Source: Methanobacteriota archaeon (GTDB lineage: Archaea > Thermoplasmatota > Thermoplasmata > RBG-16-68-12). From it: a DNA stretch of 60,533 nucleotides. The notes under the pieces are model-generated. The model was given only the letters and a program-made list of their open reading frames with translations. It made no database searches and was not told the DNA's origin. Of this stretch, positions 9,152 to 59,233 are shown piece after piece. Numbering within the stretch: the stretch's first letter is position 1; each line of letters opens with the position of its first letter. Made by a program: the position numbers and the translations under genes. The DNA lies in contig VBLS01000111.1 in NCBI GenBank assembly GCA_005878635.1, positions 1-60,533 of the forward strand, in the 5' to 3' direction.

Positions 9152-9924
9152 TGATCCTCCTCGAAGCCCAGAACCTCCATTCTGGCTATGGGGAAATGGA
9201 AATCCTCCATGGCGTGTCGATGCGACTCGACAGCCAGGAAATCGTGACGATCATTGGGCCCAATGGGGCCGGCAAATCGACCCTCATCAAGACGATATTC
9301 GGCCTCCTCCGACCGACCGCCGGCCAGGTGACCTTCAAGGGCCTCGACATCACCGGAAAACCGCCTCGGGACCTGGTCCTCGACGGGCTTGCCTACGTCC
9401 CGCAATCGAACAACACGTTCCCGTCCCTCACGGTCCTCGAGAACCTGGAAATGGGCGCCATCACCCGGAGGGCCTCCCCCATCCCGATGCCCTGGAATCG
9501 TAGCCGGGGTTCGGCGACGTCGCCGCGCATGATGAACGACTCGCAGATCCGGAGACGGGCCATCGAGACGATCGCCCTCTTTCCGAACCTCCGCCCGAAG
9601 TTGCGGGAGAGGGCGGGGAACCTCAGCGGCGGGGAGCAGCAGATGGTCGCCCTCGCGAAGTCGATGATGCTGGACCCCGACATCCTCCTGATCGATGAGC
9701 CCTCGGCGGGCCTCGCCCCGAAACTCGTGGATATGGTGTTCTCCAAGATCGTCGAGATCAATGGAAGCGGGACCTCGGTCGTGATGGTGGAGCAGAACGC
9801 GAAGAAGGCACTCGCCATAGCGAACCGCGGATACATTCTGGAGACGGGCAGGAACCGCTATGAGGGGGCCGCAAAGGAGCTCCTCCAAAACACCGACGTT
9901 GCGAAACTCTACCTTGGCGGCTAG
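9148..9924 (+). CDS. livF: branched-chain amino acid ABC transporter ATP-binding protein (LivF-like)
   Basis: ATG at 9148 overlaps the livG stop (ATGA). GPNGAGKST, LSGGEQQMVALAKSM, ILLIDEPS. Contains an extra Ser/Arg/Pro-rich segment. Confidence 0.85.
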   Translation: MMILLEAQNLHSGYGEMEILHGVSMRLDSQEIVTIIGPNGAGKSTLIKTIFGLLRPTAGQVTFKGLDITGKPPRDLVLDGLAYVPQSNNTFPSLTVLENLEMGAITRRASPIPMPWNRSRGSATSPRMMNDSQIRRRAIETIALFPNLRPKLRERAGNLSGGEQQMVALAKSMMLDPDILLIDEPSAGLAPKLVDMVFSKIVEINGSGTSVVMVEQNAKKALAIANRGYILETGRNRYEGAAKELLQNTDVAKLYLGG

Positions 9925-9972
9925 GGCTGACGCTGACCGCGAGAAAAAGGAAAGAAGAAAAGGGAAGGGGGT

Positions 9973-13660: not shown

Positions 13661-13975
13661 TATTTGTGACAGTGGATTATTCCGATTAGTCGAATCTATG
13701 TGGATGCTATAATAGGATACCATAAATCGAGATTCACTATCTTTGTTTAGGTGCGTCAGAATTCCGATTTTTCCGTGACAATCCTTGTCTCGGAAACCCG
13801 CTAGCCCCTTGACTACTATTTTGCGTGTGCCATAAAATTCACCCTTGTCGCGTTCGCTCTCCGCCTCCCTTATGCACGCATTTCCGTACGACGTTGCGTC
13901 AGACTATCGTCCGACCGGCAGACTTTTTTACTATGAGGTGCCTCTGCCGCTTCGGGATGGGTTCGAATAGTTCGA

Positions 13976-14788
13976 GTGGCAGTCTACACTAGAGTCTCTA
14001 CCGAAGACCAAGCTAAAGAAGGATTTTCCCTCAGCGCCCAGAAGGAGCGCCTTGAGGGTTACTGCTTGGCCCGCGGGTGGGAGGTCGCGGCCCTGTATGT
14101 GGACGATGGGCACTCCGGCCGCAACACCCGCCGGCCCGCGTATCAACGGATGATCGAGGAACGGGATCGGTGGGACGCGATCCTCGTGATCAAGATGGAT
14201 CGAATCCATCGAAACGCTCGTAACTTCATGGAGATGATGGATCAATTGGGTGATTGGGAGAAGGACTTCGTGTCCGCTACGGAGTCTCTCGACACATCCA
14301 CCGCGATGGGACGCTTCGTGATGGACATCATTCAGCGCATCGCGCAGCTCGAGTCCGAACAGATCGGGGAGCGCGTCAAGATGGGGATGGCCCAGAAGGC
14401 GAAGGCGGGTCCTGGAATCGTCGGGTACCAGCCGCCGTTGGGCTACGAGGTCTCGGCGGGCAATCTGATTACGATCGGTCGAGAGGCGAGCATCGTCCGG
14501 GAGATCTTCCGACGATGCGAGGATGGCTCCACGCTCGAAGAGATCGCCGCGGCCCTGAATGACGAGGGCCTCCGGACCAAGCGGGACACGGAGTGGACCG
14601 CCGTCAAGGTGTACCACATCTTGCACAACCCGGTCTACGCGGGCTTCCTCCGGTGGGACGGGTTCCTCCGAAAAGCGGAACATGAGGCCTTCGTCTCCGC
14701 CGAAACGTTCAACGAGGTCCAGGCACGGCTCCGGTCGCGCGCCCTCCTCGCGAACGCCCGGGCCCCTCCAATCGTCCTGGAGGCCTGA
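13976..14788 (+). CDS. serine recombinase (resolvase catalytic domain + recombinase domain), short form
   Basis: GTG start. VYTRVSTEDQ carries the catalytic Ser, followed by DDGHSGRN, the RIHRN region, then a PF07508-like recombinase domain (HNPVYAGF). It lacks the zinc-ribbon and coiled-coil tail of large serine recombinases. Confidence 0.85.
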   Translation: MAVYTRVSTEDQAKEGFSLSAQKERLEGYCLARGWEVAALYVDDGHSGRNTRRPAYQRMIEERDRWDAILVIKMDRIHRNARNFMEMMDQLGDWEKDFVSATESLDTSTAMGRFVMDIIQRIAQLESEQIGERVKMGMAQKAKAGPGIVGYQPPLGYEVSAGNLITIGREASIVREIFRRCEDGSTLEEIAAALNDEGLRTKRDTEWTAVKVYHILHNPVYAGFLRWDGFLRKAEHEAFVSAETFNEVQARLRSRALLANARAPPIVLEA

Positions 14789-14791
14789 GCG

Positions 14792-15520
14792 ATGGAGGGC
14801 CGCTGCGCGCGATGCTGGACGCCGAAGAACCTCGTGAGCCACGAGGTGGAGGCAAATCCGCGGGCGGACCCAACCGTCCGGAAGGAAAAGGTCGTCCTCT
14901 GCAAGCATTGCGCCGACGGAGCGCCCGCGGACGCCCTCCTCTTCTGGGAAGTCTACATGCGATTCGGTTCGACCCGCGAACTCTTGCAGCACTACGCTGC
15001 GGAGACTGAGGAGGACGCCCTCCGAAAGCTCTGCGTCGAGCGGGACCTGAACGAGCGAGAGGTGGTCCGGCGGGCCCGCGGGCAGCAGAGCGCCGAGGCC
15101 CTCAACAACGCGGTGAAGAAAGCGAATGCGTTCCTCACCTATGCGAGCCCGTACGGCTACGACTACGTGAACGGCGTCCTCCAGGTGAAGCAGGAGGAGG
15201 CCCGCGTCGTATCGCTCATCTTCAGGCGGTACCTCGAGGGGAAAGGAATCGCGAAGATTTGTCAGGAGTTGAATCGCGACGGGTACCGGACGAAGACGGG
15301 ACGCGCCTGGGCGAGCCAGACGATCGCGAATATCCTCAGCAATCCCGTCTATTGCGGCCTGTCCCGGTTGAACGGCGGCATCAAGCGCGGGAAACATGAT
15401 GCCCTGATCGAAATCGAGACGTTCAATCGAGTCCAAAACGAAATGCAGCGGCGGATCCGGCGGCCGGACCAGAGGAAGCCGGACACCCCGCAGCTGCGGC
15501 TCGAGGACTACCGCGAGTGA
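14792..15520 (+). CDS. recombinase-domain protein lacking the catalytic resolvase domain, with N-terminal CxxC...CxxC zinc ribbon
   Basis: CARC-x27-CKHC at the N-terminus. The C-terminal half (YGYDYVNGVLQVKQEEARVVSLIFRRYLEGKGIAKICQELNRDGYRTKTGRAWASQTIANILSNPVYCGL) is paralogous to the recombinase domain of the upstream ORF. The start is 3 nt after that ORF's stop. Confidence 0.7.
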   Translation: MEGRCARCWTPKNLVSHEVEANPRADPTVRKEKVVLCKHCADGAPADALLFWEVYMRFGSTRELLQHYAAETEEDALRKLCVERDLNEREVVRRARGQQSAEALNNAVKKANAFLTYASPYGYDYVNGVLQVKQEEARVVSLIFRRYLEGKGIAKICQELNRDGYRTKTGRAWASQTIANILSNPVYCGLSRLNGGIKRGKHDALIEIETFNRVQNEMQRRIRRPDQRKPDTPQLRLEDYRE

Positions 15521-15682
15521 GCCATCCCTCCCCGGATTTCTCGCACATTTTGCGGTCTGCAGAGGACCGCAGGCGGGCATCCCATTGTGCAAAGGTAGTC
15601 CAAACCGAAATGGGAAGGCGCTCGAGGCCGCGTTGACAATCCATAGGACTATATGGACGCCTAGTTCTATGTGTCCAGGCGA

Positions 15683-15835
15683 ATGCCCAAGCGAGTCAGG
15701 GATCTCACGACGATCCAGTTGACGACCGAGACCCGGGATCGGTTGTACCGGCTGAAATTCCGGAAGACCTACGACGAGTTCCTCTCGGAACTTTGCGACG
15801 TATTCGAGGCGTCGGGTCAGGACGATCAAAAATGA
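15683..15835 (+). CDS. small putative ribbon-helix-helix-like protein (50 aa, not in ORF track)
   Basis: Manual translation gives MPKRVRDLTTIQLTTETRDRLYRLKFRKTYDEFLSELCDVFEASGQDDQK. A short strand (TTIQLT) followed by helices resembles the CopG/RHH layout. It lies inside the island. Confidence 0.35.
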   Translation: MPKRVRDLTTIQLTTETRDRLYRLKFRKTYDEFLSELCDVFEASGQDDQK

Positions 15836-15980
15836 GCCCTCGAAACGTCGTTTAGCTAATACATATAATTTCATACACGGTTTTGTTACAGCTATACTGA
15901 TCGCATGTCCCAGCTACTAGCGACGATTTCGGCACCCGGCTGATAGGGTTATGACCGCACGGCCGATTCTCAGAGCGAGC

Positions 15981-17351
15981 ATGAGCTGGGCGGAGCGACA
16001 CCGACCGAAGGACCTCGACGACATCGTCGCGAATCCGACCGCGGTCGCCGAGCTCCGAAAGTGGGCGGCGGCATGGCAGCGCGGTCGACCGGACAAGAAG
16101 GCGGTCATCTTGCAGGGCCCTCCCGGCATCGGCAAGACGAGCGCCGCCCTCGCCCTCGCGAAGGAGATGGGCTGGAGCGTCGTCGAGATGAATGCCTCGG
16201 ACAGCCGGAACGCGGAGGCGATTCGGAAGGTCGCGACTCGCGGGGCCGTCCTCCAGACCTTCAGCGATTCCGGCGAATTCCTCCGGGCGGCCCAAGGAGG
16301 ACGCAAGCTGATCGTCCTCGACGAGGCCGATAACGTGTTCGGCCGGGAGGACCGCGGAGGGATCGGCGCGATCGTGGAGACGATCCAGACGAGCGGGCAG
16401 CCGATCGTCCTGATCGCGAACGACTACTACGGCCTCACCCGACGATCGTCCTCTCTGAAGCGACTAAGCAAGACCATCAAATTTCAACCTATTCACGATG
16501 ACGCCATGAAAAACATACTTCGCACGATCACCACCAAGGAAGGCGTCGACGTCGCCTCGGAAGTCCTTGATGTGATCGTCGAACGGTCCTCGGGAGATCT
16601 GCGGTCCGCGATCAACGACCTCGAGTCCCTCGCGATCGGCAAAGACGCGGTCCGGGCCACCGGGACGAAGGCCCTCGGGTACCGCGATCGAGAGCGCACG
16701 ATTTTCCCCGCGATCGAGGAGATCCTCCGGTCCGGAGATGCGCGGCGCGCGAAGGAGGCCGCGACGGGACTCGACGAATCCCCGGAGGACCTCATCTTGT
16801 GGGTCGACCAGAACCTGGGCCACGAGTTCGGCCGTCCCGACGACCTGGCCCGCGGCTACGATGCACTGAGCCGCGCGGACGTCTTCCTGGGGCGGGCCCG
16901 TCGGCGACAGAGCTTCGGCCTCTGGTCGTACGCGAAGGAGCTGATGTCGAGCGGCGTCGCGGTCGCCCGGAAGGGCCGTGGTCGAGGCGGCCAGCTCGAG
17001 TTCCCGTATTACCTGATCCAGATGGCCCGCTCTCGGGCGCAGCGCGGGGCGCGGACGTCCCTCGCCACGAAGCTCGCTCGCCACCTGCACGTCTCGCGGA
17101 CGCTCATCCTCGACGAACTCCTCCCGACGATCCGGATGCTGTTCCAGGGCGACGAGGAGCTGCGGGTGAACCTCACCGCCGCCCTCCGCCTCGAGGACGC
17201 GGAGGTCGCCCTCCTGATGGAGGAGCCGGAGTCGAGCCATGCGGTGAAGCACCTCCTCGAGAAGGCGGCCCTGGTCGCCGGGGCTCGTGCCCCCGAGTCG
17301 AAGGAAGGCTCGCTCCCCGCGTTCGACGAGGACGACGCCGATGCCGCGTGA
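15981..17351 (+). CDS. rfcL: replication factor C large subunit
   Basis: MSWAERHRPKDLDDIVANP, Walker A GPPGIGKTS, LIVLDEADN, and a SGDLRSAINDLE sensor region. Start taken at ATG 15981. Confidence 0.85.
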   Translation: MSWAERHRPKDLDDIVANPTAVAELRKWAAAWQRGRPDKKAVILQGPPGIGKTSAALALAKEMGWSVVEMNASDSRNAEAIRKVATRGAVLQTFSDSGEFLRAAQGGRKLIVLDEADNVFGREDRGGIGAIVETIQTSGQPIVLIANDYYGLTRRSSSLKRLSKTIKFQPIHDDAMKNILRTITTKEGVDVASEVLDVIVERSSGDLRSAINDLESLAIGKDAVRATGTKALGYRDRERTIFPAIEEILRSGDARRAKEAATGLDESPEDLILWVDQNLGHEFGRPDDLARGYDALSRADVFLGRARRRQSFGLWSYAKELMSSGVAVARKGRGRGGQLEFPYYLIQMARSRAQRGARTSLATKLARHLHVSRTLILDELLPTIRMLFQGDEELRVNLTAALRLEDAEVALLMEEPESSHAVKHLLEKAALVAGARAPESKEGSLPAFDEDDADAA

Positions 17352-18915: not shown

Positions 18916-19434
18916 GTGGTCGATCTCCTCCAGATCCTGCTCGACTCCTACAACACCCCCTGGATCTACATGCTCCTGGCGTTCGGGTATGCGATCCTGG
19001 TCGCGATCATCCTGCCGATCCCGATCGAGATCGCCCTCGTCAAACCGCTCGTCGACCAGAACTTCGGATTCCTCCTTGGCACCGGCTTGGCGATCGCCGC
19101 GGGCAAGACGCTCGGCGCGTGGCTCATCTTCATCTTCGGCCTGAACATCGAAGGATCGATTCGGAAGTGGTCGGCCCGCTGGCGGGTCGCCGCCTGGATT
19201 GTGAGGAAGGCCGAGAAGCTGGTCCAGAAGACCGGATACGCGGGGCTGTACCTTCTCCTGAGCATCCCCCTCATGAGCGACACGATCCCGATCTACGTGT
19301 ACTCCCTCTTCAACCAGGAAGGGAAGGCCCTGGAGCGGAACATGTTTCTGATCGCGAATTTCCTCGCGGCCCTGAATCGCGTCGCGATCCTCGGCGCGAT
19401 CTGGTTCGTAGCCCGTGAATTCTTCCCCATTTGA
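18916..19434 (+). CDS. integral membrane protein (possibly DedA/VTT-like)
   Basis: 172 aa with four to five hydrophobic helices. The family call is weak. Confidence 0.4.
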   Translation: MVDLLQILLDSYNTPWIYMLLAFGYAILVAIILPIPIEIALVKPLVDQNFGFLLGTGLAIAAGKTLGAWLIFIFGLNIEGSIRKWSARWRVAAWIVRKAEKLVQKTGYAGLYLLLSIPLMSDTIPIYVYSLFNQEGKALERNMFLIANFLAALNRVAILGAIWFVAREFFPI

Positions 19435-20459
19435 TGGCCCACACCCTTATGGTGCGGGGTCGGTTCCGACGGCCCGTGTTCGAACTGCCGTCGGTCCTCG
19501 ATGCGACCGGCCTGCTCGATAAGGCCTTCGGCCGGGCCGCCAAGGCCACGGCGACAGGACCCGATCGGATCGCGCGGGCACGCAACCTCGCCGCCGCCCG
19601 GGTCCGGATCGCGGGGCAGACGATCGAGTCGACCCTCCGAGGAATCGTGAAGGGCTTCCCCAGCCTAGACCGGCTGCCGCCCTTCTACCGCGAGCTCGTC
19701 GACATCTTGGTCGATGCGAACCAGCTCAAGAAACACCTCGGCGCGATCGACTGGGCGGCGGACCGAACCGCGAACCTGGCGCGCGACTATCGTCGCCGAA
19801 TCGGCAAGGCGGAGGGCCAGTCCATCGGGGAGCTGCGGAAGCAGGCGTACGGCCGACTCTCGTCGCTCGTGGAACAAGTCGGGCCGGATCTCGAGGCGCT
19901 CACCGAGGCCCGTCGCGCCCTCCGACGGCTCCCGGAGATCGATCCCGCCCTGCGGACGGTCGTGGTCGCGGGCTACCCGAACGTCGGGAAGAGTTCCTTC
20001 GTCCGCGCGGTCTCCTCCGGTCGACCGAAGATCGCGGACTACCCCTTCACCACGAAACGGGTCTCGCTCGGCCACTTCGACCGAGGGGTGGAGCGCTTCC
20101 AGATCCTCGACACCCCGGGCCTCCTCGATCGACCGATGGCGAAGCGGAACGCGATGGAGCGCCAGGCGATCTCGGCGCTCTCCCACGTCGCGGACGGAAT
20201 CCTCTTCCTCCTCGATCCCACGGAGACCTGTGGGTATCCGCTCGACGACCAACGGAAGCTCCTGGCCGAGATCCGTAGTCTCTTTCCCGCGGTCCCTCTG
20301 CTCGTCCTTGCGAACAAATCGGACCTCGGAGGCCCGCGGACGGAGGGGATCGCGGTGTCGTCCCTCACCAGCCGCGGGGTGACGAAGGCCCTCGATGCGT
20401 TGTTGGCGAAAGTCACCAACCGCGGTCCTGGAGGCGCGCCTCGATCGGCAGCGCCTTAG
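19431..20459 (+). CDS. NOG1-family GTP-binding protein
   Basis: N-terminal NOG1-like helical domain ([18 protein letters not shown]), G1 [23 protein letters not shown], and NKSD. Confidence 0.8.
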
Positions 20460-46875: not shown

Positions 46876-47876
46876 ACCCCCTGCTTCGATTCGCGCGAAA
46901 CGTAGGTGAGATCGGGGGACTTTTCCAGTTTCACGAAGCCGATCCGGGCGGCGTCGCGGAGGCGGATGAGTCGCTTCGCGGGCCCCGGAATTGAACCGTG
47001 GAGCAGGACGTACGAATTACGGACGATCCCGTAAGAGAGGAACCCGCCGCTCGGATTGATCTCCTCACCCTTCTCGCCGATCTTCAAAATCCGCTTGTTG
47101 TACTCCGTCCTCTGATGATACCCGAACTGTCCGCCTTGCGGGACCGTCGGCCGCACGTATCCCGGCTGGAAGTTCCCGAGCGTGCCGATGTTCCGCCGGT
47201 GCTTCGAATTCTTGTGGCTCAGGAGCCGCGTGCCCCATCGGGTGTGGTGCCCCTTCCACCCCTTGCCTTTCGTGATCGCGGCGACGTCGACGATCGATCC
47301 TTCCCGACAGAATTCCGTGACGGCGATGTCCGTCCCGAGCAACTGCTTCGCGTATTTGATGCGGTCCTCGATGGAGCCGCCGCCGACCCGATTCTCCATC
47401 AGATCGGGCTTCTTCTTCGGGACCCCGGTCAGCAACGCCGGCTGCGTGTAGGTTATGAGACGCACGTCGTCGACGTGCGCGGGATCCACCTTTTTCCAAG
47501 CTTCCTCCGCGTCGTAGTCCTTCGGAATCGGGAAGACCCTTCGCAGTTCCTTGTCGAGCTTCGGGCTCCACACCTCCACCTGGGTCCTCAGGCCCTCGGG
47601 CTCCCGATGGTAGAGTCGCACCGCCGCGACGTGCATCGGAGGGACCTCGAGCACGGTGACGGGGATCTGGACCTCCTGACCCGATGTGGTCGAGGTGGGC
47701 CGGTAGTCCACCACGATCGCGTGCGTCATCCCGGCTTTGTAGCCCGCAAAGCCCTGGACCTTCGGGCTGCTTCCGTCCAAGTCGGGCCAACTCGAGAAGT
47801 GGGGAATCGGGCTCTCGCTCCTCTTGCGGGGCGAAAAGCCCATCGAGCCGTGTCGTGGTCGGTGTTCCTTCGGCAT
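46872..47876 (-). CDS. rpl3: 50S ribosomal protein uL3
   Basis: RPRHGSMGFSPRKR...FAGYKAGMTH...KGKGWKGHHTRWG. GGAGG lies upstream of the ATG. Confidence 0.9.
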   Translation of the reverse strand: MPKEHRPRHGSMGFSPRKRSESPIPHFSSWPDLDGSSPKVQGFAGYKAGMTHAIVVDYRPTSTTSGQEVQIPVTVLEVPPMHVAAVRLYHREPEGLRTQVEVWSPKLDKELRRVFPIPKDYDAEEAWKKVDPAHVDDVRLITYTQPALLTGVPKKKPDLMENRVGGGSIEDRIKYAKQLLGTDIAVTEFCREGSIVDVAAITKGKGWKGHHTRWGTRLLSHKNSKHRRNIGTLGNFQPGYVRPTVPQGGQFGYHQRTEYNKRILKIGEKGEEINPSGGFLSYGIVRNSYVLLHGSIPGPAKRLIRLRDAARIGFVKLEKSPDLTYVSRESKQGV

Positions 47877-47957
47877 CGGCGAGTCCTCCGCGCAAAGCGT
47901 TCTCTCGTCGCGTGCAACGAGCCGCGGGCGAATGCCACGCCGCCGTGACGCTGCCTG

Positions 47958-47982
47958 CGGGCCCAGAAGATTCGGGCCCGCA
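47958..47982 (-). promoter_or_regulatory. GC-rich hairpin in the putative leader of the rpl3 operon
   Basis: Perfect 8-bp inverted repeat GCGGGCCC-N9-GGGCCCGC, about 80 nt upstream of the rpl3 ATG. Confidence 0.4.
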
Positions 47983-48053
47983 TTTCCGGGATCCTCAAGC
48001 GGATTGCCCAGGGGCGTCTGGTCGGCGCGTTGGGCCGTCCCTATGGAGGGGGG

Positions 48054-48067
48054 CTATTTAGCTTTTT
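48054..48067 (-). promoter_or_regulatory. candidate BRE/TATA element of the ribosomal protein operon
   Basis: The minus strand reads AAAAAGCTAAATAG, about 180 nt upstream of the rpl3 start. No other AT-rich box lies between it and the gene. Confidence 0.3.
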
Positions 48068-48123
48068 GGAGAAAGACGTGCGTCTCTCGGAGGAAAATGC
48101 GAATGTTCGCGGAAGGGCGGCGC

Positions 48124-48288
48124 TCAGCGGAGAAGGGCTTTCGGTTTCGCCTTCGGGAGATCGAGCGGCTCGATCGCAATCGGCCGCGGCGACTCCTCTT
48201 CTCGTTCCTCGTCCCGTTCGAGTTCGGATTCGTCGGCGATCGCCCGCCAGAGCGCTTTCATCCGTTCGTCATAATACTCGTCGCACAT
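48124..48288 (-). CDS. small acidic hypothetical protein (54 aa form)
   Basis: MCDEYYDERMKALWRAIADESELERDEEREEES... Low-complexity acidic sequence, so coding status is uncertain. The longer 89-aa version would start at 48393. Confidence 0.2.
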   Translation of the reverse strand: MCDEYYDERMKALWRAIADESELERDEEREEESPRPIAIEPLDLPKAKPKALLR

Positions 48289-48393
48289 CGGGCCACCTTC
48301 GGTCCCGTATTTCGGGGAGGATACATCATCATTTGCCAATCTCCGGCCATGGGAGGGTGTTTCGATGAGGCCGGACTCCTCGCCGTCTATCAA

Positions 48394-48409
48394 TTATCCT
48401 GGGGGATAA
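48394..48409 (+). promoter_or_regulatory. dyad TTATC-N6-GATAA upstream of GTPase gene 1
   Basis: TTATCCTGGGGGATAA sits 13 nt upstream of TTTAAG (48423). The ATG at 48451 is about 28 nt after the TATA-like box. Confidence 0.45.
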
Positions 48410-48450
48410 CGCTCCCATAACGTTTAAGCGGGTCTCGCCGGGTATGCCCG

Positions 48451-49032
48451 GTGCCAGGCGGGAATTTTATGGAAGTCAAGAGGATGAAGGTGAAGGTTTG
48501 TCTCATCGGCGAGGCCGCAGTCGGCAAGACCTCCCTCATCCGCCGATTCGTCCTCGACAACTTCGATGACAAGTATATCCAGACCCTTGGCACGAAAGTC
48601 TCGAAGAAGGAACTCGCCTCGCCCAGCCCCGACGGCACGGGCGAACTGAAGATCGACATGACGATCTGGGACATCATGGGCCAGAAAGGATTCCGCGAGC
48701 TCCTCAAGGAGGCCTACTTCTACGGCGCCCGCGGGATTCTCGCGGTGTGCGACGTGACCCGCCGCAAGACGCTCGACGACCTGGACGACTGGATCGAGGG
48801 CGTCTACAGCGTGACCGGCAAGATCCCGATCGAATTCCTGGGGAACAAGGTCGACCTGAAGGACCAGCTCCAGATCACGGAGGACGAAATGGTCCAGGCG
48901 GCGAGGGCCTACGACAGCCCGTTCCACTTCACGTCGGCGAAGGCCGGCGTCAACGTCGAGACCGCGTTCCAATCCCTGGCGGAGCGCGTCGCGAAGGAGC
49001 GATACGCGAGGAAAGTCGTCGCGGAAGAATAA
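48451..49032 (+). CDS. Rab/Ras-like small GTPase, paralogue 1
   Basis: G1 GEAAVGKTS, switch I YIQTLGTKV, G3 WDIMGQKGF, G4 GNKVDL, G5 TSAKAG. 193 aa. Later ATGs are possible starts. Confidence 0.8.
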   Translation: MPGGNFMEVKRMKVKVCLIGEAAVGKTSLIRRFVLDNFDDKYIQTLGTKVSKKELASPSPDGTGELKIDMTIWDIMGQKGFRELLKEAYFYGARGILAVCDVTRRKTLDDLDDWIEGVYSVTGKIPIEFLGNKVDLKDQLQITEDEMVQAARAYDSPFHFTSAKAGVNVETAFQSLAERVAKERYARKVVAEE

Positions 49033-49035
49033 GAA

Positions 49036-49051
49036 TTATCATCGACGAGAA
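49036..49051 (+). promoter_or_regulatory. dyad TTATC-N6-GAGAA upstream of GTPase gene 2
   Basis: TTATCATCGACGAGAA sits 14 nt upstream of TAGATAAG (49066). The ATG at 49095 follows about 29 nt later. Confidence 0.35.
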
Positions 49052-49094
49052 TCGCGTCCTCACGGTAGATAAGACGGAGTCCGTTTCGAACCGC

Positions 49095-49652
49095 ATGATG
49101 GCGACGCCCGCGGTGACCGGCCTGAAGCATATCAAGGCCAAGGTGTGTCTGGTCGGGGATGTCGCCGTAGGAAAGACCTCGCTCATCCGGCGGTTCGTCC
49201 AGGACGAATTCGACGACCGCTACATCGCGACGGTCGGGACGAAGGTCACGAAGAAGACCGTCGAAGTGGAATGGCGGGGTGCGCCCGCAATGCTCGACAT
49301 GATGGTGTGGGACATCATGGGCGAGAAAGGTTTCCGCGCCCTCCTCCGGGACGCGTACTTCGAAGGCTCGCATGGCGTCATCGCGGTCTGCGACCTGACG
49401 CGCAAGGACTCGTTCTACGACCTCAACAACTGGGTCCAGATGATCCGCAAACAGGTCGGGAACGTCCCGATCGTCTTCCTCGGAAACAAGATGGACCTCC
49501 TGGAGCGGCGCGTCGTGAGCGAGGAAGAGCTCGCGCGGATGGGCACAATCCACAGCGCCGCGCATTTCCTCGCATCGGCGAAGACAGGCCACGGCGTGAA
49601 CGAGGCCTTCAAAGCCCTCGCGGATGCGATCGGTCATCACGACGACGCCTGA
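49095..49652 (+). CDS. Rab/Ras-like small GTPase, paralogue 2
   Basis: G1 GDVAVGKTS, switch I YIATVGTKV, G3 WDIMGEKGF, G4 GNKMDL, G5 ASAKTG. 185 aa. Confidence 0.8.
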   Translation: MMATPAVTGLKHIKAKVCLVGDVAVGKTSLIRRFVQDEFDDRYIATVGTKVTKKTVEVEWRGAPAMLDMMVWDIMGEKGFRALLRDAYFEGSHGVIAVCDLTRKDSFYDLNNWVQMIRKQVGNVPIVFLGNKMDLLERRVVSEEELARMGTIHSAAHFLASAKTGHGVNEAFKALADAIGHHDDA

Positions 49653-49684
49653 GCCCACGCCATTTTCGATGGCGTCGCACGCGT

Positions 49685-49702
49685 GTTATCCCCGAAGATA
49701 AC
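49685..49702 (+). promoter_or_regulatory. dyad GTTATC-N6-GATAAC upstream of GTPase gene 3
   Basis: GTTATCCCCGAAGATAAC is a perfect 6-bp dyad. TTTATAA at 49717 lies about 15 nt downstream, and the ATG is at 49760. Confidence 0.45.
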
Positions 49703-49759
49703 CGTTGGGCAACGCCTTTATAACCTGAGGATGGTGGGCGCGATACGCCGAACCAGAGG

Positions 49760-50299
49760 ATGGAAATGGACCGCCAGAAGATGAAGGTGAAAATCTGCCT
49801 CGTCGGGGAAGGCGCCGTCGGCAAGACGTGCCTGATCCGGCGGTTCATCCAGGACCAGTTCGACGATCGGTACATCTCGACCCTCGGGGCGAAGGTCTCG
49901 AAGAAGGAGATCAAGATCGATGGCCCCAACGGCGGGTCCGACATCGACATGACAATCTGGGACATCATGGGCGAGAAGGGATTCCGCGAACTCCTGAAGG
50001 AGGCCTACTTCCACGGGGCCCAGGGAGTCCTCGCCGTCTGCGACGTGACGAGGAAGCAGACGCTCGACGATTTGGCAGACTGGGTCGCGGCGGTCGTCAA
50101 GGTCACAGGCAACGTCCCGATCGAATTCCTCGCGAACAAGGCGGACCTGAAGGATCAGATGGACCTGACCGAGGCTGACATCCGCCGGACCGCGGATTCG
50201 TACCACGCCCCTTACGTGTTCACGTCGGCAAAGACGGGACAGAACGTCGAGGACGCGTTCGCGAAGCTCGCCAAGATGATCGCCACGCGGGCTGCGTAG
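49760..50299 (+). CDS. Rab/Ras-like small GTPase, paralogue 3
   Basis: G1 GEGAVGKTC, switch I YISTLGAKV, G3 WDIMGEKGF, G4 ANKADL, G5 TSAKTG. 179 aa. Confidence 0.8.
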   Translation: MEMDRQKMKVKICLVGEGAVGKTCLIRRFIQDQFDDRYISTLGAKVSKKEIKIDGPNGGSDIDMTIWDIMGEKGFRELLKEAYFHGAQGVLAVCDVTRKQTLDDLADWVAAVVKVTGNVPIEFLANKADLKDQMDLTEADIRRTADSYHAPYVFTSAKTGQNVEDAFAKLAKMIATRAA

Positions 50300-50494
50300 A
50301 TCTCGACGTTCGAACGCGAAACGAGTACGCACCTTTTCGTGCACGCGAACCTTCGTTGGTCAGGCGTTTTCTCTGGAGAAAATTCGGAATTACGAGTGCG
50401 ATTTTCGAAATCTCACGAGTGTGTCCAAGGTCAAAGTGTTTAAGTAGAAGGCTCGTGTATTCAAAGCGACCCTTGCGAGGGGCCGGTCTAGAAG

Positions 50495-52480
50495 ATGGTG
50501 GAGACAGCGGGAGAACCGGAAGAACTCCCGCCCGTGGATTCGTGGATTAACAAGGTCGACTTCCGGTCCACGGCGGAAGTGAAGATCCCCGAACGGCTCG
50601 TGGACCAGGTCATCGGTCAGGAACGGGCCGTCGAAGTCATCCGCAAAGCCGCCGAACAGAAGCGGCATGTCATGTTGATCGGCGACCCGGGCACCGGGAA
50701 GTCGATGTTGGCCCGGGCGATGACGGAACTCCTGCCCCGGGACGACCTCCAAGACATCATCGTGTATCACAATCCCGAGGACCCGAACGAACCCAAGATC
50801 CGCGTCGTCCCCGCGGGCAAGGGCCGGGAGATCGTGAACGCCCAGAAGGCCGAGGCGATGCAACGCCGGGAGCAGAAGGCCTCGATGGTGATGACGATCG
50901 TGTTCTTCATCATCGGCCTGAGCGTCATCCTCTCCTACCAATGGGGCGCGCAGGAGCCGAGCTTCCGCCCGGATGCCCCGAACATCATCCTGTTCGGGAT
51001 CCTGGTCGCGGCGATCATCTACATCGCGACGCGGTACACGGGTCACCGTCAGGAGAACCTGATGGTCCCGAAGCTCCTCGTCAGTCATACGCCCGATGAA
51101 ATGCCGCCTTTCATCGACGCGACGGGGAGTCACGCTGGCGCCCTGCTCGGGGACGTCAAGCACGATCCCTTCCAGAGCGGCGGCCTTGAGACGCCCGCGC
51201 ACGAGCGCGTCGAATCCGGCGCGATCCACAAGGCCCACAAGGGCGTCCTCTTCGTCGACGAGATCAACGTCCTCCGCATGGAGAGCCAGCAGAGCCTGCT
51301 GACCGCGATGCAGGAGAAGAAATTCTCGATCGTCGGCCAGAGCGAGCGCTCGTCCGGCGCCATGGTCAAGACGGAGGCGGTCCCATGCGACTTCATCCTC
51401 GTCGCCGCGGGAAACCTGGACGCGGTCCAGGGGATGCACCCGGCGCTGCGGTCCCGCATCCGCGGATACGGATACGAGATCTACATGAAGGCCACGATGG
51501 TGGACACGGAGGACAACCGCCTCAAGCTGGTCCGGTTCGTCGCGCAGGAGGTCGCGAAAGATCGGAAGATCCCGCACTTCGACCGCACGGCAGTCCTGGA
51601 AATCCTCCGGGAGGCTCAGCGAAGGGCCGGCCGCCGTGGACAGCTCACCCTGCGCCTTCGCGAGTTGGGCGGATTGATCCGCGTCGCGGGGGACATCGCG
51701 CAGGAAGAGGGGACGCCCCTCGTGACGGCGAAGCACGTCCTGAACGCGAAGCGCATCGCGCGCTCCCTCGAGCAGCAGGTCGCGGACCGCATGATCGAGC
51801 GGGGCAAGGAGTACCAGACCTTCATCACGGAAGGATCGATCGTCGGCATGGTGAATGGCCTCGCGGTCCTGGTCGGTGACAACTCGATCGCAGAATTCAG
51901 CGGCATCGTCTTGCCGATCGCCGCCGAGGTGACCCCGGCGCAGGCGAAACAAGGCGGGCGCATCATCGCGACCGGCCGGCTCGGCGAGATCGCGAAGGAG
52001 GCGGTCGAGAACGTCGCCGCGCTGATCAAGAAGTACACCGGCGAGGACATCTCGAACCATGACATCCACGTCCAGTTCGTCGGCTCCCGCGAAGGGACGG
52101 AGGGCGACAGCGCCTCGATCTCCGTCGCGACCGCGGTCATCAGCGCCCTCGAAGAAGTCCCGGTGAACCAGGCGGTCGCGATGACCGGCTCCCTGAGCGT
52201 TCGCGGACAGGTCCTGCCCGTCGGCGGCGTGACCGCCAAGATCGAAGCCGCGGCGGAGCTCGGGATCGAGAAGGTCGTCATCCCGCGGTCGAACATGAAG
52301 GACGTCCTCCTGGAGGACAAGTACCAGGGGAAGATCCAGATCGTCCCCGTCGACACCTTGAGCGAGGTCCTGGAGCAAGCCCTCGTGGGCCCGAAGAAGT
52401 CGGGCCTGATCAGCAAGCTCGCGGCGCTCGTTCCCAAGATGACCCCGGACAAGCCCGGCCTCGGCGCAGTCCCCCACTGA
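50495..52480 (+). CDS. lon: archaeal membrane-bound ATP-dependent Lon protease (LonB)
   Basis: Walker A GDPGTGKSM. Two TM helices are inserted in the AAA+ module (MVMTIVFFIIGLSVIL, ILFGILVAAIIYIA). C-terminal Lon protease domain with GDSASISVATAVISAL and a catalytic Ser-Lys. Confidence 0.9.
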   Translation: MVETAGEPEELPPVDSWINKVDFRSTAEVKIPERLVDQVIGQERAVEVIRKAAEQKRHVMLIGDPGTGKSMLARAMTELLPRDDLQDIIVYHNPEDPNEPKIRVVPAGKGREIVNAQKAEAMQRREQKASMVMTIVFFIIGLSVILSYQWGAQEPSFRPDAPNIILFGILVAAIIYIATRYTGHRQENLMVPKLLVSHTPDEMPPFIDATGSHAGALLGDVKHDPFQSGGLETPAHERVESGAIHKAHKGVLFVDEINVLRMESQQSLLTAMQEKKFSIVGQSERSSGAMVKTEAVPCDFILVAAGNLDAVQGMHPALRSRIRGYGYEIYMKATMVDTEDNRLKLVRFVAQEVAKDRKIPHFDRTAVLEILREAQRRAGRRGQLTLRLRELGGLIRVAGDIAQEEGTPLVTAKHVLNAKRIARSLEQQVADRMIERGKEYQTFITEGSIVGMVNGLAVLVGDNSIAEFSGIVLPIAAEVTPAQAKQGGRIIATGRLGEIAKEAVENVAALIKKYTGEDISNHDIHVQFVGSREGTEGDSASISVATAVISALEEVPVNQAVAMTGSLSVRGQVLPVGGVTAKIEAAAELGIEKVVIPRSNMKDVLLEDKYQGKIQIVPVDTLSEVLEQALVGPKKSGLISKLAALVPKMTPDKPGLGAVPH

Positions 52481-52497: not shown

Positions 52498-52665
52498 GTG
52501 GACGAGGGCCTTGAACCGTTCGAGTTCTCGGAACCGATGCCTTGCTACGAGGTCAACGCGGCGATCCCGTCCGTCCACGACGACGGCCGGTGCATCCATT
52601 GCCGCAAGTTCCTCACGCTCGAGTGCCCGTACATCGGCCACTTCGTCGGAGAGGACGACGAATGA
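52498..52665 (+). CDS. small four-cysteine protein (55 aa, not in ORF track)
   Basis: Manual translation gives VDEGLEPFEFSEPMPCYEVNAAIPSVHDDGRCIHCRKFLTLECPYIGHFVGEDDE. The GTG is preceded by GGAGAGAG. The stop overlaps the NMNAT ATG (ATGA). Confidence 0.35.
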   Translation: MDEGLEPFEFSEPMPCYEVNAAIPSVHDDGRCIHCRKFLTLECPYIGHFVGEDDE

Positions 52666-53210
52666 CGGGACGCGCCTTCTTCATCGGCCGGTTCCAGCCC
52701 TTCCACCGCGGACACCTCGCGATGGTGCGGCGGATCCTGGAATCGAACGAGGAGATCATCGTCGGAATCGGCTCGGCCCAGTACAGCCACACGGGCGAAA
52801 ATCCCTTCACGGCCGGGGAGCGGTACGAGATGATCAAGAGGGCCCTCGACGCGGAAGGGATCCACAACTACCACATCGTCCCAATCCCCGACACCCACGT
52901 GCACAGCGTGTGGGTCAGCCATGTCACGTCCCTCGTCCCGCGCTTCGACGTGGTCTACACGAACTCTGATCTCGTCGTGCGCCTGTTCCGGGAGCACGGC
53001 CTGAAGGTGCTCTCGCCACCACTGCTGGACCGCGAGCGCCTCTCGGGGACCACGGTCCGCCACCGGATCCTCAAGGGGGAGGATTGGGAGTCCCTCGTCC
53101 CCGCGGTGGTCGCGGCGTACATCAAAGAGATCGATGGGACCGAGCGCATCCGCGAGACGCACAAGTACTCGACGCCGTACGGCACTCGCGAAAACCACGA
53201 GGACGCCTGA
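52662..53210 (+). CDS. nadM: nicotinamide-nucleotide adenylyltransferase (archaeal type)
   Basis: FIGRFQPFHRGHLAMV (HxGH motif), GIGSAQ, and the SGTTVR motif. 182 aa. Confidence 0.85.
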   Translation: MTGRAFFIGRFQPFHRGHLAMVRRILESNEEIIVGIGSAQYSHTGENPFTAGERYEMIKRALDAEGIHNYHIVPIPDTHVHSVWVSHVTSLVPRFDVVYTNSDLVVRLFREHGLKVLSPPLLDRERLSGTTVRHRILKGEDWESLVPAVVAAYIKEIDGTERIRETHKYSTPYGTRENHEDA

Positions 53211-53389: not shown

Positions 53390-54214
53390 TCACCAATCGA
53401 GCTGGTAACCGCAGTACGGGTCTCCACGGAGCATGCAGGCGACCTTCGTGACCGTGGCGTCGATCTTCAACATCTGGACGAACCCCTCGTACGCGCCCAA
53501 CCATGCGGCGCAGCGGGCGGGGCTGCTGATCCAATCGTAGTTCTTGAGCAGGGCCCGATGCCCCTGGACCTCGACCTCGAGGCGTCCGTGGTTGAATTCC
53601 CGCGAGTACGCATTGGGGGACAACTCGAGCAGGAGCGGGAATGGAATGACCCGGGAGATGAGTCGCTTGGCCGACGAAAAGTTCCTCGCCTCCTCCCGGA
53701 GCATTCGCCGGATCGTCTCGTAGGTGCCGTCTCCGAAACGGGCTTCGATCGCGTCCAAGGCTTGCAAGGCGGCGCGAAGAGGATACCAGCCGTCCGCCCG
53801 TACGGTGGACGGATCGAGGCCGACGCCAATGAGGATCTCGTCCGCGGCGGTCGAGGTGTAGTGGGCTGCGACCCAATGGTGGTAGTTCCGAAGGTGACCG
53901 CCCCGGATCATCGGTGCGACGATCCGATCGCCCCGCTCCTCCGTGAGCTCGCCGAAGACGGCTCGGCCGAGGCCGGAGGCGGCATAGAGCCGGCCGCGGC
54001 GCTGGCCCGCGACGCGCTCGACGAGGTCCGTGCGGACGAGTTGACCGAGCGCGCGGCTCACGTGGGGCAGGTGCAGCCCCGTCTGCTTCGCAACCTGCAC
54101 GGGCGTCTTCGGCCCCGGGATCACGGCAGCGAGGACCGTTTCGCGTTGTCGACTCGCGAGGACGAACGAGAGCCCTTCGAGGAAATCCCTAGATCTAGTC
54201 GGCGCACCTTGCAT
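53390..54214 (-). CDS. transcriptional regulator, wHTH + V4R-like ligand-binding domain
   Basis: N-terminal wHTH (KTPVQVAKQTGLHLPHVSRALGQLVRTDLVER). The C-terminal end ...KVACMLRGDPYCGYQLDW resembles the C-x3-GD-x2-C tail of V4R domains. Confidence 0.55.
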   Translation of the reverse strand: MQGAPTRSRDFLEGLSFVLASRQRETVLAAVIPGPKTPVQVAKQTGLHLPHVSRALGQLVRTDLVERVAGQRRGRLYAASGLGRAVFGELTEERGDRIVAPMIRGGHLRNYHHWVAAHYTSTAADEILIGVGLDPSTVRADGWYPLRAALQALDAIEARFGDGTYETIRRMLREEARNFSSAKRLISRVIPFPLLLELSPNAYSREFNHGRLEVEVQGHRALLKNYDWISSPARCAAWLGAYEGFVQMLKIDATVTKVACMLRGDPYCGYQLDW

Positions 54215-57222: not shown

Positions 57223-59150
57223 CGGGGCACCTCGACCTCGAGAAGGCCCAATCGATCCACGGTGAGGTGCGCGCCGGGAGGAACGACAGTGGTCGCATGG
57301 TCCTCCGCCACGATGGCGGGACCGTCGATCTCGCTCCCGACGCCGAGGCGCGACCGTTCGTGGACGGGGACATCATGCCATCCGTCGTCGAAAAGAACCC
57401 GGCGACTCCGCGGACGCGAACCGCGATGAAGAGGCGCACGCGGCCGGCGGAACGGACGTGGCATGCGGACCACGAGGCGGGCCGCGACGACCTCGATCGC
57501 TTCGCTCCGCGAGGCGTATCCGTACCGAAGCCGATGCGCTCGATGGAAGGCCCGCCTCAAGTCGCCGCGGATCGGAACGTTGATTTCGTAACTCTGCCCC
57601 TTGAATCGTAGGTCGACGCTCGATTCGAATTGAGCCCGACCCACATCGTGCCCTTGCGTCCGCAGCACCGAAATCGCCCGGTCACGGAACTCCTCGATCG
57701 CCGACTCGATGACCGTCTCGGCTCGCTCCAACGGTCGGAGGACGCTTCGCCCATACTCGGCTCGGATCGGAGAAATCAGGATGCCGTAGGCCGAGAACGC
57801 CCCAGGGAGGAAGGGCACGAGGACCGTCCGGACCCCGAGCTGTTGGGCGAGGGCGCATGCGTGCATCGGCCCGGCGCCGCCGAAGGCGAGCAACGCAAAA
57901 TCCCTCGGGTCAAGGCCGCGACGGGCGAGGACCAGCCGCATCGCCTTCGCCATCGAGGCTTCGACAACCCGCTGGACGCCGAGGATCGCTTCGTCCCGGG
58001 AAAGATGCAGGGTCGATGCGAGGGCCTCGATCCCTTTTGTGGAGAGGGACCTGTCGAGGGGAAGCCGACCTCCGAGGAGACTCGGTCCAAGGGACCCGCC
58101 GACGAGGTCGGCATCCGTCACCGTGACCTGGGACCCGCCCGCACCGTAGGCCATGGGCCCCGGGGTCGCGCCGGCGCTCTCGGGTCCGACTCGAAGCGCG
58201 CCTCCCGGGTCAATCCACGCAAGGCTCCCTCCTCCCGCGCCCACGGACTCGATGTCGATGACCGGGATCGCAATCGGGAAGGTGTCGATCACGGCATCGG
58301 TCGTCCAGGTCGGCTCGCCCTTCGGGAGTGCGGAAAAATCTGCGCTGGTCCCTCCCATGTCGAAGGTGACGAAGTTCCTCGAATGGCTCCCTCGAGACAG
58401 GGCCGCGCCGGCGGCGACGCCGCCCGCGGGACCGCTGAGGACCAAGTCAACCGGTCGTCGGGCGACGGCCGAATGGACGGCCACGCCGCCTCCCGATTTC
58501 ATCACGAAGAAGTCCTTTCGAATTGCGGCCCTCAACTCGGTCAGGTAGCGGCCGACGAGCGGTTTCAGGTAGGCGTCCAACACGGTGGTCGAAGCGCGCT
58601 CATACTCTCGAAATTCCGGGAGGACTTCGTGGCTCATCGAGACGGGGAGGTCGCCAAGGGCATCGCGGAGGATCCGCTCGTGGCTCGGTCGCATGAAGGA
58701 GAAGAGCAGGCAAATCGCCACGGATTCCGCCTTTCGGGAACGCACCTCCCTGGCAATTCGGCGGGCCTCCCGCTCCGTCAGAGGGCGCAACGGGCGCCCT
58801 CGCGCGTCGACGCGTTCGTCGGCTCCCAGGCACATCTCCGAATCGACCGGCGGAGACGCCCGTGTGACGTGGAAGTCGTACAAGTTCGGACGGTCCTGGC
58901 GGCCGATGATCAGCAGGTCTTCGAAGCCCGCCGTCGTCACGAATACCGTGCGGGCCCCTTTTCGTTGCAGGATCGCGTTCGTGGCGACCGTCGTCCCGTG
59001 GGCCATGCCGCCGGCCCCGAGCTCCCGCATCCCGTCGACGACCGCGCGGGAGGGATCGGGCGTCGACGGAACCTTGGCCGTCACGACCTCGCGGCCGCGG
59101 AACCCGACGAAGTCCGTGAAGGTCCCGCCGACATCCACGCCCACGTCCAT
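57219..59150 (-). CDS. hyuA: hydantoinase A/oxoprolinase family protein
   Basis: MDVGVDVGGTFTDFV... and FDMGGTSADF motifs. Start taken at ATG 59150. The upstream 450 codons of the 1093-aa ORF overlap trpB2 out of frame and are not coding. Confidence 0.85.
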   Translation of the reverse strand: MDVGVDVGGTFTDFVGFRGREVVTAKVPSTPDPSRAVVDGMRELGAGGMAHGTTVATNAILQRKGARTVFVTTAGFEDLLIIGRQDRPNLYDFHVTRASPPVDSEMCLGADERVDARGRPLRPLTEREARRIAREVRSRKAESVAICLLFSFMRPSHERILRDALGDLPVSMSHEVLPEFREYERASTTVLDAYLKPLVGRYLTELRAAIRKDFFVMKSGGGVAVHSAVARRPVDLVLSGPAGGVAAGAALSRGSHSRNFVTFDMGGTSADFSALPKGEPTWTTDAVIDTFPIAIPVIDIESVGAGGGSLAWIDPGGALRVGPESAGATPGPMAYGAGGSQVTVTDADLVGGSLGPSLLGGRLPLDRSLSTKGIEALASTLHLSRDEAILGVQRVVEASMAKAMRLVLARRGLDPRDFALLAFGGAGPMHACALAQQLGVRTVLVPFLPGAFSAYGILISPIRAEYGRSVLRPLERAETVIESAIEEFRDRAISVLRTQGHDVGRAQFESSVDLRFKGQSYEINVPIRGDLRRAFHRAHRLRYGYASRSEAIEVVAARLVVRMPRPFRRPRAPLHRGSRPRSRRVLFDDGWHDVPVHERSRLGVGSEIDGPAIVAEDHATTVVPPGAHLTVDRLGLLEVEVPR

Positions 59151-59233
59151 GGTCGGCCGGATTGTCCGAGACCTCAAGAGACTTCGCGCGGCTAATCCGA
59201 CGACTCGGGAACGGATTGCGGCCAGCGGGGTGG

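Follow-up and report, generated by a model that had tools for sequence, protein, structure and literature searches.

Sets of several Rab/Ras-like GTPases with Roadblock regulators are usually discussed as a hallmark of Asgard archaea and eukaryotes. We analysed a 60.5-kb archaeal chromosome fragment (65% G+C; hereafter the window, meaning this whole stretch), in which three tandem Rab/Ras-like small GTPase genes, copies 1, 2 and 3 (G1, G2 and G3), lie on the + strand between a divergently oriented ribosomal L3-L4-L23-L2 operon and lonB. The closest described systems include the single Rab-like genes of a Thermoplasmatales archaeon and Aciduliprofundum (Surkont & Pereira-Leal 2016, PMC4915359), the Thorarchaeota Rab 7ezb (Thor-Rab; Tran et al. 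2024, PMC10933270), and the prokaryotic Rup GTPases, none of whose 121 genes was coupled to an MglB homologue (0/121; Wuichet & Sogaard-Andersen 2014, PMC4316618). According to Tran et al., GTPase genes and their regulators do not share operons in Asgard archaea, and coordination through transcription factors was suggested; a recent study of Asgard ArfR makes no mention of Thermoplasmata.

Like the archaeal Rab-like GTPases and Thor-Rab, the proteins of the trio are stand-alone G domains of about 180 amino acids (aa) with a WDxxGQ-type G3 motif, NKxD and SAK, and without a prenylation motif. They differ in that the G3 motif reads DIMG[QE]K, with Glu for the catalytic Gln in two of the three copies, and in that their RabF motifs are much weaker than those of Thor-Rab (switch I TLGTKV, switch II GFRELLKEAYFYGA). 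Furthermore, one copy per species was described by Surkont & Pereira-Leal, whereas the present lineage has an array of three or four genes with a common operator. With Rup proteins the trio shares a prokaryotic, non-MglA character, a length below 240 aa, the retained G3 Asp and an uncharacterised status, and with Rup group 2 the multiple copies per genome. However, the catalytic Gln is missing from Rup group 1, whose genes have a conserved four-gene neighbourhood, whereas copy 1 of the trio has the Gln; group 2 occurs only in Crenarchaeota and lacks conserved neighbours, whereas the trio stands beside lonB and a nicotinamide-nucleotide adenylyltransferase (NMNAT) gene; and, unlike Rup genes, the trio is adjoined by a Roadblock gene in two relatives.

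The MglA-MglB systems of Myxococcus and Thermus also combine a small GTPase with a Roadblock-fold regulator, and the model of this clade's Roadblock protein matches MglB at a template-modelling (TM) score of 0.8-0.9. In contrast to MglA, the trio keeps the G3 Asp and has Rabs as its nearest neighbours. The Roadblock protein of this clade, being a covalent tandem, is a pseudo-dimer; it has a small transmembrane partner and is usually unlinked to GTPase genes. Rag/Gtr-Ragulator and the actinobacterial conservon (CvnA-D) likewise bring several GTPases together with Roadblock/longin platforms at the membrane, and the doublet loci described below have GTPases near a membrane protein with a Roadblock-like tail, a sensor-like arrangement. 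The trio is not a Rag system, because its GTPases have no C-terminal Roadblock domain, and not a conservon, because a histidine kinase is absent. We consider it fairly probable that the trio represents three anciently diverged, individually promoted Ras-superfamily switch paralogues, predicted to be co-regulated and differentiated in kinetics and effectors. What is new here is the set of individual predicted promoters, each with a common palindrome.

Results

Conservation of the array and divergence of its copies

Our scan of GTDB species representatives yielded 77 loci, distributed over about 64 assemblies whose labels read Thermoplasmata, Methanobacteriota or 'Methanomassiliicoccales'. VBLT01000120.1 proved to represent essentially the same species as the window. 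When the window proteins were mapped onto all loci, the order G1-G2-G3-LonB-NMNAT was found in about 50 of them. Ten more distant genomes (about 50% G+C) carry four tandem GTPase genes followed by lonB and NMNAT, with L3 not adjacent. Variants of the array were also observed: L042 has two copies, L037 and L041 have no lonB downstream, and several genomes carry additional paralogues elsewhere, as singles or doublets. With a triplet or quadruplet array in about 55 species-level metagenome-assembled genomes (MAGs), the synteny check bore out a conserved set and not the neutral duplication that the earlier note had named as the alternative. That note had also called such GTPases sporadic, which does not hold in this lineage: the homology search returned 3,727 relatives at E ≤ 1e-10, many of them 72-90% identical, from Thermoplasmata MAGs, some already annotated 'Rab family GTPase' at NCBI. 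Among 1.84 billion cluster representatives, 339 clusters matched at E ≤ 1e-30 and 11,771 at E ≤ 1e-10; the signature WD[IV][ML]G[QE] was common among the best 150 cluster representatives, many of which have C-terminal extensions.

Copies 1 and 3 of the window are 63% identical, close to the 60% estimated by eye in the earlier note, and copies 1 and 2 are 46% identical. The GTPases cluster by array position and not by genome. When 50 three-gene arrays were compared, the copy at the same position was the best match in 100%, 67% and 97% of cases for copies 1, 2 and 3, and mean identity within these orthogroups was 80%, 65% and 74%, compared with 49-62% between paralogues inside one genome. We then took a residue census from an H-Ras-anchored alignment of 221 family members. 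The P-loop Lys/Thr, the switch-I Thr, the G3 Asp/Gly, NKxD and SAK were kept in 221/221, and the unusual G3 motif DIMG and an Ala at Ras-13 were present in all members. The position of Ras-Q61, by contrast, followed the array, with Gln in 60/60 first copies and Glu in 50/50 second and 49/50 third copies. The same was true of the Ras-G12 position: copy 1 has Ala there, copy 3 has Gly (49/50), and in copy 2 the residue is Val, Phe, Ile or Thr (48/50). In the window, copy 1 has the P-loop GEAAVGKT, the G3 motif DIMGQ and the C-terminal tail KERYARKVVAEE; copy 2 has GDVAVGKT (Val at Ras-G12) and DIMGE; and copy 3 has GEGAVGKT and DIMGE. Because both orthogroups and residue signatures follow array position, we rejected a recent neutral duplication; on these alignments the three paralogues are anciently diverged, each position forming its own orthogroup.

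The divergence was unevenly distributed along the proteins. Positions identical across the three window paralogues made up 62% of switch I, 67% of switch II and 73% of beta5/G4, compared with 23% of the beta2-beta3 hairpin (interswitch) and 4% of alpha4-beta6. Such nearly identical switch regions, together with one operator common to three genes and a copy number of two to four between genomes, would suit redundant copies that are kept for dosage or robustness and whose Q/E and G12 differences are functionally meaningless. We regard this as quite unlikely, given strict positional signatures over about 50 genomes (Gln 60/60; Glu 50/50 and 49/50), position orthogroups maintained despite 46-63% identity between paralogues, and a retained gene order. 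Ras Q61E is reported to have increased intrinsic GTPase activity (PMC10515638, PMC2987813), and Glu therefore need not inactivate copies 2 and 3.

A common palindrome at the GTPase promoters

Upstream alignments revealed a conserved BRE/TATA-like box before every GTPase gene (BRE, transcription factor B recognition element), in agreement with the separate promotion proposed in the earlier note. Each box is preceded, at a distance of about 12-15 nt, by the palindrome TTATC-N6-GATAA. At ≤1 mismatch the whole 60.5-kb window contains three matches only, all 5' of the trio (0.24 expected), and none of 100 shuffled sequences reached three (0/100). When two mismatches were allowed, matches were at chance level, with no credible extra site 5' of lonB, the winged helix-turn-helix (wHTH) gene or the small gene upstream of copy 1. 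Across 877 kb of related loci, 162 of 176 palindrome matches fell ≤130 bp upstream of a GTPase start codon, four-gene arrays and unlinked singles and doublets included. The operator was present 5' of copy 1 in 39/48 three-gene and 10/10 four-gene arrays, and 5' of copy 3 in 48/50 genes.

In the window, operator 2 begins 4 nt past the stop codon of copy 1, and the TATA-like box of copy 2 is only about 23 nt from its ATG, so that the copy 2 mRNA is probably leaderless or nearly so. The spacing of palindrome, 9 nt, 'AA(C)' and T/A box was fixed over genomes of 49-67% GC, while the spacer and flanks of the palindrome had diverged. This combination favours a protein-binding site under selection over the inheritance of a duplicated promoter. 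With this predicted shared operator, the three genes look co-regulated.

In L019, a 2.1-kb insertion between copies 1 and 2 (6565-8700) holds two open reading frames (ORFs; 187 and 195 aa) without a Pfam match and an extra palindrome copy at 8054-8069. In L058 (2988-3306; also in L053, L055 and L060), nested palindromes TTATCATTATCGATAAGGATAA and a TATA box precede a gene for a 64-65-aa ribbon-helix-helix (RHH)-like protein (…YNIRIDAELLRRYKEFCEDNGLDPQGQVINFMRRMV…), and three GCTACAT repeats lie downstream of it. The gene may be a regulator candidate or else one more member of the regulon; no homologue of it was found in the window.

Family assignment of the three GTPases

The earlier note had read all five G motifs in three co-directional ORFs and placed them in the Ras superfamily, and both points were confirmed. 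The G1-G5 motifs are invariant in the 221 family members, the three window genes included, and Pfam Ras PF00071 matched all three far past its cut-off (E 4e-35 to 5e-39; Table 1). Other profiles gave weaker or less specific matches: Pfam Arf matched at E 5.5e-9, 5.3e-13 and 6.5e-14, the Roc profile at E about 1e-26, and Gtr1_RagA marginally or below cut-off (E about 3e-6). From NCBIfam only the generic small_GTP domain was returned, all named equivalogs being far under their cut-offs for the three proteins. The best phmmer match in the PDB was Thor-Rab (1.9e-28), followed by Rab8A, Rab1, Rab27 and Ypt1. An AlphaFold2 (AF2) model of copy 2 is a canonical G domain (predicted local distance difference test, pLDDT, 85.2; predicted TM score 0.83), and its top 50 Foldseek matches in the PDB were all eukaryotic Rabs (TM 0.79-0.86).

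Several more specific assignments were considered. The RabF1-F5 motifs that Pereira-Leal and Seabra are said to have defined in 2000 read IGVDF, KLQIW, RFRSIT, YYRGA and LVYDIT. In one alignment, Rab8A has IGIDF, KLQIW, RFRTIT, YYRGA and LVYDIT at these sites, and the window proteins have LGTKV, DMTIW, GFRELL, YFYGA and AVCDVT, with about 11 of 27 positions matching. The switch I described earlier as Rab-like is therefore so only loosely, with TLGTKV here versus TIGIDF in Rab. A Cys within the last six residues was found in 1/221 family members and in none of the three window proteins, so the noted lack of a prenylation Cys extends to 220/221. Given the weak RabF motifs and the absent prenylation Cys, Rab sensu stricto was rejected, although the nearest neighbours in sequence and structure are nevertheless Rabs. 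MglA, for which loss of the G3 Asp (according to Wuichet & Sogaard-Andersen) and coupling to mglB are the criteria, was rejected on an Asp at Ras-57 in 221/221 members and on the absence of a Roadblock gene from the 60-kb window. Arf was rejected because the G domain starts at residue 8-16 with no N-terminal amphipathic helix and the Ras profile scores far better than Arf. Rag/Gtr was rejected because the proteins end about 10-15 residues past alpha5, without the C-terminal Roadblock dimerisation domain, and match Gtr1_RagA marginally. ROCO was rejected because, despite the Roc profile match, each protein is a stand-alone G domain rather than a Roc-COR protein.

At 177-187 aa, single-domain and with invariant Asp-57, the GTPases fall within the operational definition of Rup (<240 aa, non-MglA). 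Within Rup, the neighbourhood and the Gln of copy 1 are unlike group 1, and the taxon is unlike group 2. Their best filing, as judged from sequence and model comparisons, is as unclassified Rup/Ras-like GTPases that are Rab-like in sequence and fold. They are ordinary members of a known superfamily, and their family is known but uncharacterised.

A Roadblock module in relatives

The earlier note had found no Roadblock/MglB gene beside the trio. This is correct for the window, but such a gene adjoins the same trio in the relatives L032 and L086. In L032, a 287-aa ORF (5033-5896) directly 5' of copy 1 and on the same strand matched Pfam Robl_LC7 PF03259 (4.1e-9; 36.5 bits vs a cut-off of 23). 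We found 104 homologues of about 275 aa in Thermoplasmata, which JGI annotates as 'predicted regulator of Ras-like GTPase activity (Roadblock/LC7/MglB family)'. An AF2 model of the homologue P0176 has two tandem Roadblock-type domains (pLDDT 81.8). Foldseek matched it to 9jue, 6hjm and 6izw (E about 2e-8, TM 0.8-0.9), and it superposes on an Asgard Roadblock protein, M. xanthus MglB and Ragulator LAMTOR p14/MP1. An overlapping gene always lies 5' of the Roadblock gene and encodes a 126-142-aa protein with 3-4 predicted transmembrane helices; in L032 and L086 this two-gene module stands immediately 5' of the trio. By tblastn only, the second Roadblock-like domain also showed homology to a cytosolic tail in membrane proteins of 870-960 aa, whose genes lie two genes away from GTPase doublets; Pfam had no match on that tail. 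These features suggest Roadblock-type regulation of the GTPases at the membrane.

The earlier note had also remarked that MglA normally travels with MglB. Since 0/121 Rup genes are coupled to MglB (Wuichet & Sogaard-Andersen 2014), the absence of MglB next to a non-MglA GTPase is normal, and what stands out is the adjacency of the Roadblock gene in L032 and L086. That adjacency of a protein with an MglB-like fold, together with one single-copy paralogue locus beside an archaeal A24 prepilin-peptidase-like gene, is what an MglA/MglB-type polarity or motility module, in which a GTPase and its Roadblock GTPase-activating protein (GAP) set a spatial axis, would lead one to expect. We nevertheless hold such a module to be very unlikely: the G3 Asp, absent in MglA, is present in 221/221 members, the sequence and fold neighbours are Rabs and not MglA, the window has no MglB gene, and the trio is not flanked by archaellum or pilus genes.

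Two types of additional paralogue locus were recorded. At the second locus (L074:5917-10424, L076:5434-10956, L081:5947-11491), an orotidine monophosphate decarboxylase gene (-) is followed by a GTPase doublet and then by the 870-960-aa membrane protein, which has a signal peptide, a large ectodomain rich in N-glycosylation motifs (weak PKD match), one transmembrane helix and the cytosolic tail. In L076 and L081, a helical protein of about 425-467 aa without a Pfam match is encoded between the GTPases and the membrane protein. At the third locus (L075:4941-10255; also L070, L071 and L077), the A24 prepilin-peptidase-like gene (-) is followed by a single GTPase carrying His at the Ras-G12 and Ser at the Ras-Q61 position, then by an amino-acid permease fused to two Usp domains and an MscS-like channel (-).

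lonB, the ribosomal operon and other features of the window

As the earlier note had stated, lonB directly follows the trio, and its product is an archaeal LonB equivalog scoring far above the TIGR00764 cut-off of 516.6 bits (Table 1). In most fetched array loci lonB follows the array, and no other feature of the neighbourhood is conserved as deeply as this adjacency. One explanation is that the GTPases work with LonB, regulating it, recruiting substrates to it or being controlled by it at the membrane. The block of array, lonB and NMNAT is retained from 67% to 49% GC genomes, and persists where L3 identity is 58-60% and the upstream flank becomes KaiC-like and membrane genes, as this explanation would predict. 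However, alignment of 22 upstream regions showed a separate, strongly conserved promoter for lonB (GGTCAAAGTGTTTAAGTAG…GTGTATTCAAA) that lacks the palindrome at ≤1 mismatch, and T-runs follow the stop codon of copy 3. The arrays of L037 and L041 have no lonB downstream, the other paralogue loci have unrelated neighbours, NMNAT is linked to lonB as tightly as the array is with no evident functional reason, and our literature search for LonB together with small GTPases in archaea returned nothing relevant. Because of its own promoter, the T-runs, the NMNAT linkage and the silence of the literature, the LonB tie is a minority explanation and an unlikely one. The upstream alignments indicate that the link is probably conserved adjacency only, not an operon or common operator, with regulon membership of lonB unlikely. 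A T-rich inverted repeat (TTTTCTCTGGAGAAAA, 50367-50382) lies between copy 3 and lonB. It was seen nowhere but in the window and in L005, the closest relative, and is possibly a terminator-like element following copy 3.

On the other side of the trio, the ribosomal protein operon is adjacent and divergent in the window and in close relatives, which could point to GTPases associated with the ribosome or translation. This is scarcely credible, since the Era, Der, YqeH, HflX and YsxC equivalogs reached 15-29 bits against cut-offs of 124-631, the operon is not adjacent in the four-gene-array genomes, and a separate Nog1-type ribosome-biogenesis GTPase is encoded elsewhere in the window (19431-20459, +; NOG1_N, NOG1 and MMR_HSR1 domains) and is unrelated to the Rab-like trio.

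The coordinates of the features are listed in Table 1.

Table 1. Features at the GTPase array and its flanks, in window coordinates
Feature	Position	Strand	Basis
Conserved 54-aa small protein	48124..48288	-	Same position in >35 related loci (tblastn)
Palindromic operator 1, TTATCCTGGGGGATAA, 5' of copy 1	48394..48409	.	≤1-mismatch scan
TATA-like box of copy 1, GTTTAAG, with BRE-like AAC before it	48422..48428	+	Upstream alignment, conserved AACGTTTAAG
Copy 1 (G1), Rab/Ras-like small GTPase, 187 aa	48469..49032	+	Pfam Ras 4.3e-35
Palindromic operator 2, TTATCATCGACGAGAA, 1 mismatch	49036..49051	.	≤1-mismatch scan and upstream alignment
TATA-like box of copy 2, TAGATAA	49066..49072	+	Conserved 'CACg.TA.ATaA', fixed distance from palindrome
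Copy 2 (G2), 185 aa, most divergent paralogue	49095..49652	+	Pfam Ras 3.7e-37
Palindromic operator 3, TTATCCCCGAAGATAA, 5' of copy 3	49686..49701	.	≤1-mismatch scan
TATA box of copy 3, TTTATAA	49717..49723	+	Invariant CCTTTATAA in upstream alignment
Copy 3 (G3), 179 aa, or 177 aa from ATG 49766	49760..50299	+	Pfam Ras 5.5e-39
lonB promoter, …GGTCAAAGTGTTTAAGTAGAAGG…CGTGTATTCAAA	50438..50447	+	Alignment of 22 lonB upstream regions
lonB, membrane-anchored archaeal Lon protease	50495..52480	+	TIGR00764, 914.8 bits
Conserved 55-aa four-Cys protein between lonB and NMNAT	52498..52665	+	tblastn, 34 loci
Archaeal NMNAT	52662..53210	+	NCBIfam TIGR01527, 221 bits; synteny

Two gene models were revised. 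Copy 1 had been read as 193 aa from a GTG at 48451; the most likely start is the ATG at 48469, because an ATGGAA start is conserved in relatives and the JGI call is 187 aa. Copy 3 may likewise begin at its second candidate start, which would give it the length of most orthologues. What had been dismissed as a doubtful small acidic ORF is a genuine conserved gene, shorter than its 89-aa annotation. It lies between the L3 operon and copy 1, divergent from copy 1 and on the strand of the L3 operon. In >35 loci the N-terminus MCDEYYDERMKAFWRAL is conserved, always beginning MCDEY (tblastn). In the protein (MCDEYYDERMKALWRAI...), an invariant N-terminus, MCDEY[YD]DERM[KR]AFWRAL, precedes an acidic linker that varies and a C-terminus that is basic. 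The protein matched nothing in Pfam or PADLOC and no known family; PADLOC assigned neither it nor the GTPases to a defence system. Rfam returned two sub-threshold chance matches only for 47800-50700. The four-Cys protein (C16, C32, C35 and C43) is conserved in its 34 loci, distant four-gene-array genomes included; it had no Pfam match and is possibly a zinc ribbon.

Elsewhere in the window, two adjacent paralogous genes (357-1626, -) encode an N-terminal Csa3/HFX_2341-like (CARF-type Rossmann) domain, to which the second adds a MarR-type wHTH; neither a CRISPR array nor cas genes were noticed near this pair. Positions 8001-10000 and 14001-16000 have a G+C of 0.61, compared with about 0.65-0.68 elsewhere, and the only ORFs called there, such as 8399-9073 and 13931-15874, are probably spurious, with low G+C at third codon positions (GC3). 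The GC3-based gene caller gave spurious wrong-frame ORFs, such as 13931-15874 and 57630-59195, which were disregarded.

Discussion

The positional signatures, the fixed promoter architecture and the conserved gene order are consistent with a set of differentiated but jointly controlled switches. We propose that three switch paralogues of a putative Thermoplasmata-specific clade, Rup-type and without a lipid anchor, would be turned on or off as a whole set by one dimeric transcription factor binding directly 5' of BRE/TATA. The paralogues would share the regulators that read the switches; such sharing is probable, as the three proteins hardly differ in switch I, switch II or the P-loop. The best candidate for such a regulator would be the tandem-Roadblock (MglB/Ragulator-like) protein, presumed to be co-transcribed with its partner of 3-4 transmembrane helices and to act at the membrane. 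Effectors, in contrast, would differ between paralogues, distinct effectors being probable because the beta2-beta3 hairpin, alpha3, alpha4 and the C-termini differ. Copy 1, with the canonical Gln, would be GAP-dependent, whereas copies 2 and 3, with Glu, may have raised intrinsic hydrolysis by analogy with Ras Q61E, copy 2 also carrying a bulky residue at Ras-G12. The Q/E and G12 differences would thus yield three switches of different lifetimes.

Several observations weigh against this proposal. The operator was found 5' of copy 2 in only 35/50 genes at ≤1 mismatch. Archaeal activator sites usually sit just upstream of BRE/TATA; even so, the position of the site fails to tell an activator from a repressor. 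A wHTH regulator gene (53390-54214, -; HVO_A0261_N, MarR-like) lies downstream of NMNAT in 24 closer relatives and is absent from distant ones; because its own promoter has no palindrome, it is not an obvious operator-binding factor. The RHH candidate is confined to the four-gene-array genomes. In L083-L085 the Roadblock module occurs at unrelated sites, far from any GTPase gene, and the module has no palindrome; the 60-kb window contains no Roadblock homologue at E ≤ 1. Moreover, Glu at Ras-61 and Val at Ras-12 could have other meanings, such as a catalytic residue supplied by a regulator, and all the organisms concerned are uncultured MAGs.

A much wider reading may also be entertained, though we think it doubtful. 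These archaea would possess an independent eukaryote-like GTPase network, with a regulon of about 4-7 Rab-like paralogues under one transcription factor that binds the palindrome, obligatory Gln and Glu types differing in timing, membrane control by a tandem-Roadblock platform tethered by transmembrane helices together with receptor-like membrane proteins that have Roadblock-like cytosolic tails, and a functional tie to LonB, such as GTP-gated quality control of membrane proteins.

At the level of the array itself, a non-Asgard archaeal clade has a conserved, ordered array of differentiated Rab/Ras-like paralogues, in which natural Q61E-type and G12V-type variants have long been fixed and a simple predicted cis-regulatory code is common to all paralogues. 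The palindrome offers a concrete, testable example of the coordination suggested by Tran et al. (2024, PMC10933270), and it would provide a handle for finding the regulator by DNA-affinity capture and, through it, the physiological signal to which these GTPases may respond.

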